Of a stretch of DNA of 64,000 bases, positions 53,201 to 56,200 are shown piece by piece; position 1 is the first letter of the stretch; each line of letters starts with the position of its first letter. A program made the position numbers and the translations under genes. This DNA comes from a virus. Under the pieces are notes generated by a model. That model was not told the DNA's origin, searched no databases, and worked only from the letters and a program-made list of their open reading frames with translations. The stretch lies in IMG/VR virus record IMGVR_UViG_3300007735_000798, positions 1 to 64,000 of that record. One strand, 5' to 3'.

Positions 53201-56200
53201 AATGGGCGGGCATCTTTTTTATATTCTCCAGTGTCAGGATTTACGCCAGTTAATAACCCTAATTTTTTACCCGTTTCTTCGTCTAATTTTTTTAAAATAG
53301 GCAATGCCTCTTCTCCCTTTTTACCCTGTAAAGCCATTCCAATGAATGTATCTCCAAGAAGTTTTATATTTTTTTCAACATCAGCGGTATCTGTTCCCCT
53401 AAATAAATAGTTATCTCGTCTACTAGCTAATTCACTAACCTTCTCGACATTAGCTCTATTTTCCTCTGCGCGTTGTTTTTCTCCTCTTATTTTTGCCATT
53501 TCTGCTTGTTGCGCAGTTTTTCCTTGTTTGCTTACAATTCTTGCCTGATCTTCTGGTGAAAAATCTGCAAGAGCAGCGGCATATTCATCTTGGGCCTGTT
53601 TTACTTTTTGTGGATTTGGAACGGCTTCACTTAAAGCATTTTTTAAATTTTCGCTAGCAGTTGTTAATCTAGCTGAAGCATCATTAAATTTTGTTAATTC
53701 TTGACTAGCTTTTTCATGTGCGGCAATCGCTTCTGGTAATGTATTATTAAGCTCACTAAAATAATCATTCGCAGCCATAACTCCTCCAGCTATAAGCCCA
53801 ATCGCGCCACCCGCAGCAGCCCCATAAGGACCAAAAGCCAGTCCTAATTGAGCACCAGTAGCTCCTAAACTTAGTGCTTGTCCCGCACCAGTAACAGCTG
53901 CCGCCGTTGCTCGTCCTTGCGGACTTGTCTGTGAAATAGTATTTTTAATAGTGGCCGCAAGAATTGGAGCACCAATTGCTATTGCACTTCCATATGCATC
54001 CGCAGCAGCACCAAATTTTTTTACACCTTTGGCTGAATCACCCAATGCTTGAAGATTTTGTCTATATTGATTTGTTGTTCCACTTAATACATAACTAAGT
54101 CCAACTAATTGAATACTTAACGCACCAAGTGCTGAACTAGTACTTGTAGGCTCTTCTGCATAATTTGGTACAAAACCGCGAGAATACATTCCAATACCTT
54201 TTCGCTCGCGCCCAATAGCATCTTTTAATCCATTTGGTTCATCGCGTGTATTTGTCACAGCAATTGGGTTTCCATTTTTATCAAAATGTGCACGAATTTG
54301 AGAAACTGGAACGCCACGATTAGTAGAAGCAAAATTTGGAATAAAACCTTTCGCCATTCCTCTACTTAAAAATGCTGGAATATCTTTTTCAAAAATTCTA
54401 CCAGGACCATTAGCTTGTTTAATTGGCCAAACAATTTGATCTTTACTTAAAGGTAGTCCATAAACAGAGGCACCACCAGTCTCCATATCTGGAAGTAGTT
54501 CTGAACTTTTTAGTTTATCCCTATTATATCTTACTAACCAAGAACTTTGTTTTCTAGCTGAAGCCCAATTTTTTGCACGACCAATATTTTGTTTATAAGC
54601 TTGCCTATCGCTCATTTTTTCCCCTGGTCGGGAAAGAGCATCCCACATGTAAGTTCCAGAGCCACCAAAATATTCCATAGCAGATTGGTCAGAAGATCTA
54701 TTTCGGAAGGCCCATCCTTTACCGAATTTAGATAACATCATTTTTAATTCTTTGTCATCTACGGCTCTTACGAGTGGTGCTGCAAAATTTGGAATAAAAC
54801 CGCGCGCATAAATTGGAAAATCTTCTTCTCTTTTTAGTTGGCCTTTATTTTCTACATATTTTCTAACCATTTGACTATCAAAAGCGATACCCTTGCCACC
54901 ATGAGTTCTAGATAATCTAAATAAAACTCTTTGAATATCAAATTCTTTTCCTGGAAATTTTTTTAATAATAATTGGTAGACTTTATCATCTACAATTCTT
55001 TTTTTAGGGAAGGTAATTTGTCCATAAGCTCCTTTATAACCTTCTTGTTCTTCATCTGGAGAGGCAAATGCTTGGGCAACTTTTTTATTTTTAGAAGTGC
55101 TCATCATTCGCCAATTAACATCAGTCTCAAAATCTTGAGAAACTTGATCAAAAATAGCATCTTTAATCCCAGTAGGTTCAAAATCATCACCAGGAGTACC
55201 TAACATAGTAAAATCTTTATGTCTATAATCGTCTTTTCTACCAGCTCTTAGATTAAAAATACTTTGTTTATTTAATTTTTTAAAATCTTTTCCAGGAACT
55301 GAAACGCCACGATATAATTTTTCTGTTTGTTCTGATCTGCCTAATTTTTTAATTATAGATAAATATTCTCTTAAAATTTGAGCATCAATTGCTTGGGATT
55401 TAAAATTAGGATTAGTATTAATATCTTTACGTCTTAGTGCTAAATCTTTACCAGTAGCTCTTGGTAAATCTTTAAAGTCAATACCACCCAAAAATTTTGG
55501 TGATGCAAAATTTGGAATAAAACCAAAAGCAGCTCCAGGCCTACGAAGAAACTCCATTTCTTTCATTTTTGTGGCTTGAGATTTAAAACCCATTTTTAAC
55601 GCACGTTCTCCACGAGAACTTCTAGCAAATTGAGTAACTTGATCAAAATCGTTTTTTGTCAAACCATTTTCTTCAAATTGTTTTTGAACATATTTCCAAT
55701 CTCCGATTTTTAATGCATCGACATTAAAAGATCTCCCAAGCCAACCTTCACCCAACGCTCTAGATAAAGCTTCAATTTTAGCACGACCCTTTAGTGGGAA
55801 TCCAGGTTGTTTTAGAAAAGCGTCTAAACCAGAAGTATTAACGCCCAATTTTGTTGCGGCTTTTATATAAGCATTATTCGATAAACCACTACCCTCCGAT
55901 AACTTAGTAGATATATTAGGATTAGTTATTCTACTATTTATAATTTCTATTAATTTTGAATTTGCAAAATTTGGAACAAAACCAGCAGCCATACCTTTTG
56001 ATCTACTAATTCTTGCCATTTCTTCTTTAATTGCTTTTTCTAGTTGTGGTCCTCTTCTTAGATTTTGTCCTTGAAGATTTTTTAAAGCTTCTGTTCTTAA
56101 TGCTTGTGATTGCTTATAACCAGCACCACTTTTTACTTGCTTTACTTCTCCAACTTTAGCTTCTTGTAGTAACTTGCTCATTACATCATTAACTAATTCT

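Follow-up and report, generated by a model that had tools for sequence, protein, structure and literature searches.

We found that the gene encoding the tape measure protein (TMP) of an uncultured virus contains a 234-residue internal module that stands about an even chance of being a highly diverged ADP-ribosyltransferase (ART) of the R-S-E clade, of the type represented by phage T4 ModA and ModB, carried as an exchangeable cassette and delivered as an enzyme by the phage tail. The gene lies in IMG/VR record IMGVR_UViG_3300007735_000798, a virus contig of 104.7 kb that is estimated to be 69% complete; we analysed its positions 1-64,000, a 64,000-nucleotide stretch that we refer to as the window. 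The module occupies amino acids 1227-1460 of the 2,964-residue TMP (P0001; window 54802..55503, minus strand), its translation is free of stops, and it matches a profile of Mod proteins. It is situated in the variable middle of the TMP, which is divided into units by a recurring separator, GFIPNFA, and it is exactly one such unit, bounded by separators at residues 1220-1226 and 1461-1467. A first-pass annotation, made from the sequence without database searches, had proposed an ART-like domain of this length inside a tape measure protein; the location was accurate, as the surrounding open reading frame (ORF) matches PF10145 and TMP families of PHROGs.

The three motifs on which the ART proposal was based are all in place and in frame. 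KLYRGV, residues 1288-1293 of the TMP, is at 55303-55320 in the window (it had been put at about 55306-55317). It belongs to a predicted helix and beta-strand (module residues 46-72; 55288..55368, minus strand) in which R1291 falls on ModB R73. The STS motif, at exactly 55093-55101, lies within MSTSKNKKVAQAFA (residues 1360-1373) and is followed by x7-AFA; it is part of a predicted S-T-S strand and A..FAS helix (module residues 123-149; 55057..55137, minus strand) in which S1361 falls on ModB S99. KREEDF (residues 1450-1455; 54817..54834, minus strand) ends six residues ahead of the next GFIPNFA, and MAFFT alignment makes its E1452-E1453-D1454 the candidate equivalent of the catalytic ExE. In the TMP as a whole, [FYW]RG occurs twice and S[TS]S three times.

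To compare the module with the Mod enzymes we used a profile hidden Markov model (HMM) built from 19 ModA/ModB-family sequences, all belonging to PF26816 and seeded from T4 modA and modB, with the heuristic filters turned off. Taken as a single target, the module scored 17.4 bits with P = 1.3e-7, and after correction for a library the size of Pfam the score is still near E = 0.003. The score arises from two colinear pieces, module residues 46-72 on HMM positions 54-79 and module residues 123-149 on positions 89-112, each contributing 7.7 bits. None of 20,000 composition-preserving shuffles of the module reached 17.4 bits (the maximum was 11.1), the reversed module scored -1.9 bits, and other segments of this TMP scored at most 2.3 bits. 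Among 1,072 natural stretches of 234 residues, taken from the window and 15 related loci, the module ranks top, and the best unrelated stretch scored 8.2 bits. A six-frame search of the whole 104.7-kb record gave no matches to the Mod HMM beyond the module's own two pieces, and the same model found nothing at E ≤ 10 in five related genomes.

As a yardstick, we scored true Alt ART domains of ten T4-like phages against the Mod HMM, which gave them 2.8-10.8 bits; reciprocally, Mod proteins scored -1.1 to 9.6 bits against an Alt-family HMM. By this measure, the module is closer to Mod than Alt is. The Alt-family HMM itself gave the module 2.4 bits, in register at LYRG, a score reached by 140 of 20,000 shuffles (p about 0.007), and hhalign put the S-x-S region in register with P-values of 7.5e-4 to 8.4e-4. 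L-Y-R1291-G aligns with L-Y-R73-G74 of ModB in both the HMM and the MAFFT alignments, and with L-Y-R of Alt, as expected for the arginine of an R-S-E enzyme, which follows an aromatic residue on strand beta1 and contacts the NAD phosphate; for the S-x-S strand and its A..F helix, RMMSTSKNKKVAQAFAS aligns with the Mod sequence RVmSfS..vA.nFAS. When the module was added to a fixed Mod alignment (MAFFT --add), it matched 12 of the 19 invariant or nearly invariant columns, R73, G74, S99, A107, F110 and S111 included, whereas forced global alignments (hmmalign, hhalign -glob) were useless because of inserts. R73, the residue aligned with R1291, is the one whose replacement leaves ModB catalytically inactive (R73A; PMC10468400). 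These profile comparisons demonstrate homology between the predicted NAD-binding LYRG arginine strand and S-x-S strand with its helix and those of the Mod enzymes, and a chance resemblance of the module to ARTs is now unlikely. Thus the arginine and serine of the proposed R-S-E signature held up, and only its glutamate was left without significant support. The interpretation in the first-pass annotation is therefore partly supported. The profile match is to a family of the R-S-E clade, and the closest relatives are of the Mod type, not of the cholera-toxin, VIP2 or Alt types.

The module is a rare, optional and mobile cassette, common to this virus and one other phage. Its only other copy is in a 2,518-residue TMP found in Logan assemblies (P0003; three contigs), where 232 of the 234 residues are identical. 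Outside the module the two proteins are much less alike, with 85% identity in the N-terminal core and about 30% in the C-terminal part; the block of near-identity begins and ends at separators, and the flanking modules differ. None of the 15 related IMG/VR TMP loci has the module. A phmmer search of 1.84 billion cluster representatives returned P0003 as the sole true relative. A second protein hit by this search (P0004, 3,857 aa, E = 6e-13) was rejected as a homolog: it contains 11 copies of a tandem repeat of ~240 residues, each of which matches 42 module residues at 33% identity, so that the score is inflated by the repeats and the E-value does not signify homology. No relative of the module was found by a word-indexed search among proteins of 128-410 aa, by tblastn against phages, or by scans of IMG/VR and JGI metagenomes. 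The GC content at third codon positions is 0.11 in the module, like that of the remainder of the gene, which indicates that the module was not recently inserted from a foreign source.

The separators themselves have the consensus G[FY][ILV]PN[FY]A and occur in twelve copies, one of them degenerate, after a 541-residue core; the modules that follow the core are 66, 204, 234, 146, 234, 144, 50, 851, 63, 174, 64 and 109 aa long. The GFIPNFA copies upstream (residues 1220-1226; 55504..55524, minus strand) and downstream (residues 1461-1467; 54781..54801, minus strand) of the ART-like cassette are the start and the end of the 99%-identity block shared with P0003. At the DNA level the separators (in 54157-57558 and 50617-51603, minus strand) share a near-invariant 21-nt core, GGTTTTATTCCAAATTTTGCA. 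Exchange of cassettes could plausibly take place by crossover at them, although their DNA identity is partly expected because the strong AT-biased codon use would yield much of it anyway. Literature searches for the motif string found no paper containing it.

Related TMPs have the same architecture with different contents. Nine TMPs that we compared have between 3 and 12 separators each, and the contents of their slots are mosaic; the full-length relatives (L002, L004-L007, L009 and L011) have 3-8 separators and total lengths of 1,960-3,506 aa, and sharing of slot contents among relatives is patchy, at 36-89% identity. If the length of the tail followed that of the TMP, there would be an almost two-fold range of tail lengths among these close relatives. 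Full-length TMPs among all the related loci range from 1,869 to 3,506 aa in size. The module directly downstream of the ART-like cassette (residues 1468-1611; 54349-54780, minus strand), which has no Pfam match, has a counterpart with 89% identity in L005 (residues 1117-1316). The ART-like cassette is missing from L005, and the TMP core of that locus has no more than 79% identity; the two adjoining cassettes therefore have separate histories. The first module (residues 549-614; 57340-57537, minus strand) is kept in most relatives at 44-80% identity, and the module at residues 833-1066 has 45-56% identity to modules of three relatives. The latter is also 234 aa long, and we considered whether it is a paralog of the ART-like cassette, but rejected this as there is no BLAST match between them. 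No slot in this TMP or in seven related TMPs matches a Pfam family, and PF10145 is the only Pfam domain in the seven.

Two groups of observations weigh against an active enzyme, or against an ART altogether: those that concern the ExE element, and those that concern the recognition of the module by curated libraries and by an atlas of protein sequences. For the first, the catalytic [EQ]-x-E of the R-S-E clade opens a hydrophobic strand, and it is in this strand and the one that follows (HMM positions 160-189) that similarity between Mod and Alt survives; yet the Mod HMM had no ExE-region match anywhere in residues 1376-1520, a range that includes 60 residues past the separator. A position-specific scoring matrix (PSSM) of Mod columns N164-P177 found NKGQLKREEDFPIY as its best match in the module, which is ordinary for a shuffled sequence (p = 0.27-0.4), and a low-confidence extension of the hhalign alignment placed V-R-K at ExE instead. 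Only six residues separate EED from GFIPNFA, compared with about 30 residues, forming two strands, after ExE in Mod proteins. The doubt that the first-pass annotation had voiced about its catalytic glutamate was therefore justified.

MAFFT, both when run freely and with the fixed Mod alignment, placed E1452-E1453-D1454 on E171-x-E173. In the fixed alignment 6 of the 9 invariant columns in the C-terminal half match (Y115, F147, R161, N164, E171 and P177), a number reached or exceeded by 5 of 250 shuffles of that half (p about 0.02); the corresponding value for the four columns of the catalytic core is p = 0.08. If this path is right, it would put an aspartate at the position of the catalytic glutamate, unless a one-residue bulge brings in E1453. 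The sheet would then need to be completed, as is possible, by the separator and the beginning of the module that follows it; this downstream separator may supply the strand that comes after ExE in canonical ARTs. Two other candidates for the catalytic motif were rejected. DEEQEG, after the S-helix, is at odds with ART topology as we infer it. VMNNQEIEYP (residue 582; VMNNQEIEYPG in the first module) has the best PSSM match in the TMP (11.9) but is 640 residues off, and the match, which is not significant, is probably due to chance because the protein is 2,964 aa long. A canonical ExE strand is not recognisable in the module.

Since the catalytic glutamate could not be confirmed, a tail-delivered enzyme and an inactive relic would both fit the data. 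The main rival to the enzyme is an inactive descendant of one, acting as a spacer or binding module. It would be an ART-derived pseudo-enzyme that has kept the NAD-binding half of the fold, has lost ExE and the last strands, and either has a binding, spacer or structural role or is decaying; we consider this possible, if on the unlikely side. It would account for the strong matches of R and S next to an ExE strand, normally the best conserved part, that has neither an HMM match nor a significant PSSM match, for the conflict between an alignment that gives V-R-K at ExE and another that gives Asp at the catalytic Glu, and for a domain that stops six residues past EED. Moreover, inactive ART folds do exist: the best PDB match of the Mod profile is the effector XopAI, which is a degenerate ART fold. 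Against a pseudo-enzyme, the reading frame is intact and the codon usage native, there are three consecutive acidic residues at the expected place of ExE, the C-terminal half shows weak colinearity with Mod, and in passing between phages the cassette has hardly changed, which is easier to explain if it is beneficial.

If the module is instead a tail-delivered ART, it would travel within the TMP, packed in the tail lumen, and the TMP would be expelled first, ahead of the DNA, into the envelope or cytoplasm of the host, where the module would refold. An active module would then draw on host nicotinamide adenine dinucleotide (NAD+) and ADP-ribosylate host targets early in infection, ahead of phage gene expression, with one of E1452, E1453 and D1454 as its catalytic acid. 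Mod enzymes act on arginine in RNA polymerase and in ribosomal proteins; NAD-capped RNA can be used by ModB. In a more specific version, which we regard as rather unlikely, the module would be active as a Mod-like transferase through a non-canonical acidic E-E-D triad; it would be one of several cargo domains in the TMP and be freed or exposed at GFIPNFA after ejection. Were that version true, the phage would bring in a pre-made host-reprogramming enzyme, which might work on NAD-capped RNA in the manner of ModB, ahead of any phage gene expression, and the tape measure would amount to a swappable scaffold for effector delivery.

The second group of adverse observations bears on whether the module is an ART at all. 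Pfam, PHROGs and NCBIfam searches of the module and of an extended piece gave no match up to E = 10. The silence of Pfam and NCBIfam is uninformative because T4 ModA and ModB, which are proven enzymes, get no ART match in them either (the copy of Pfam that we used does not include PF26816, Mod_ADP_RT), but the silence of PHROGs carries more weight, because PHROGs does recognise ModA and ModB (phrog_832). PF03496 (ADPrib_exo_Tox) had no match to the protein at E ≤ 10, compared with 124 bits for an Alt control, and none in the virus's own record or the five related genomes; a sequence search of the PDB returned only noise (SidD, at E = 0.057). A protein-language-model search of the ESM atlas did point towards an ART of this kind: among the named neighbours, which had scores of 0.89-0.91, PF03496 was present on 16 of 30, and one cluster was 100% Mod_ADP_RT at 0.89. 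The caveats of the atlas itself rate such scores as weak; the recognition value is under the usual threshold and the rule that counts names among the ten best named matches (5 of 10) calls the family doubtful.

The structure prediction that the first-pass annotation had suggested as a check was run twice, with low confidence and no significant structural match as the outcome. AlphaFold on the single sequence gave a mostly helical model with a mean predicted local distance difference test (pLDDT) of 36.4. With the Mod alignment as input the pLDDT was 45.8 and the predicted template modelling score (pTM) 0.37; this low-confidence model has strands on LYRG and STS and a helix on AQAFA, with pLDDT <50 in the C-terminal half. 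Foldseek and VIA-wide searches with the low-confidence models gave nothing above noise.

With no sequence match in the curated libraries or the PDB, no confident ART split-beta-sandwich fold, a mostly helical single-sequence model, and an atlas recognition value that is below threshold for a family that the rule of thumb calls doubtful, it could be argued that the module is an unrelated globular or helical TMP cassette in which LYRG and STS..AFA are alike by chance. We consider this improbable, because neither the shuffles nor any natural control stretch equalled the profile match (P = 1.3e-7), because two separate motifs are in the correct order and register, and because the module outscores real Alt domains against the Mod HMM while the independent Alt HMM picks out the same LYRG. 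Finally, we consider it very improbable that the module is not a transferase but an NAD+ glycohydrolase whose early delivery would lower host NAD+ or destroy NAD-derived defence signals. In favour of this reading, the NAD-binding R and S elements are kept and the acceptor-side ExE/ARTT (ADP-ribosylating turn-turn) region is atypical, but the module has no specific similarity to any NADase family, no macro or ADP-ribosylhydrolase (ARH) partner domain was found in the 104.7-kb record (69% complete), and NADases of the R-S-E fold, too, depend on a catalytic glutamate. Its other point in favour is that proteins targeting NAD or ADP-ribose are common in phage virions (PMC9503650).

The identity of the carrier gene is well supported. 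The ORF (50287..59181, minus strand) is very long, is located among large co-oriented genes on the minus strand, and has a PF10145 (PhageMin_Tail) minor-tail or TMP core domain at residues 116-307 (58261..58836, minus strand; Pfam E = 1.9e-27). It also matches 13 tape-measure families in PHROGs (best E-value 5.5e-54), which cover the first ~500 residues, with one alignment extending to residue 859. Its N-terminal 541 residues are 74-85% identical to those of ten IMG/VR TMP loci, whereas the core has only 26-27% identity to YomI of SPbeta. The gene is flanked by ten large genes of 266-1,164 aa (35475-50280 and 59220-63411, minus strand), which have no PHROG match save for one weak match to a family of unknown function. 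Three ORFs on the opposite (plus) strand, at 52403-53005, 53114-53410 and 56627-57028 (98-200 aa), are wholly within the TMP gene and are probably spurious. No tRNA was found in the window. The GC content is 28%, and complete relatives are 166-178 kb in size and have terminal repeats; this viral lineage is a poorly charted, low-GC one with genomes of about 170 kb.

Of the systems already known, T4 ModA and ModB (PF26816), which are mono-ARTs with an R-S-ExE signature, are the most similar to the module: their helix with LYRG and their S-x-S strand with A..FAS helix are colinear with it, and their size (about 200-234 aa) is comparable. True members of the family, however, score 154-328 bits against the family profile and the module scores only 17.4, in two short pieces, so we regard it as a distant relative of Mod_ADP_RT and not as a member. 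It matches none of the four residues of the N-terminal Mod signature (L40, C43, K47 and L56), carries one insert of about 45 aa in the interval from R to S and another of about 24 aa ahead of the ExE position, and has an ExE that either reads E-E-D or is missing. Mod proteins are also free early proteins made after infection, whereas the module is part of a virion protein, the TMP; T4 ModB in addition carries out RNAylation. In the searches made, the ModA/ModB family was confined to T4-like phages, and the module would extend it to a very distant uncultured lineage.

In concept, the module resembles T4 Alt (PF03496), a ready-made R-S-E ART in the virion that is delivered with the DNA. Alt is packaged in the capsid and injected (PMC9503650), so its carrier is an internal head protein instead of a TMP, and in sequence it resembles the module only marginally (2.4 bits, with LYR in register). 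The MuF-VIP2 fusions of actinobacteriophages and temperate phages, described among the MuF-ART polymorphic toxins (PMC7302621, PMC5576092, PMC9503650), are alike in that an ART is fused to a structural protein of the virion as variable, exchangeable cargo. There the ART is C-terminal on a head protein; here it would be an internal cassette, one among several, with separators on both sides, in a protein of the tail lumen. Accessory enzymatic modules that act at infection are known from TMPs too, as in TM4, whose TMP carries a peptidoglycan-hydrolase motif (PMC1796659), but the known examples act on the cell wall. We found no NAD-using, host-protein-modifying domain in a TMP in the literature searched, and the word 'tape' is absent from a virus-wide survey of NAD and ADP-ribose enzymes (PMC9503650).

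Virion-packaged ARTs and other enzymes of NAD and ADP-ribose metabolism are well documented for phage heads (PMC9503650, PMC7302621). The module is a weak example owing to its catalytic motif, yet this makes it useful for deciding whether cassettes of this kind are enzymes or relics. Virion-delivered ARTs have so far been known from heads, as T4 Alt and as MuF fusions, and an ART in a TMP would be a second route, by way of the protein that leaves the tail first. With the other cassettes of the protein taken into account, this suggests a second role for the TMP of this roughly 170-kb phage lineage, that of an exchangeable carrier of effectors.

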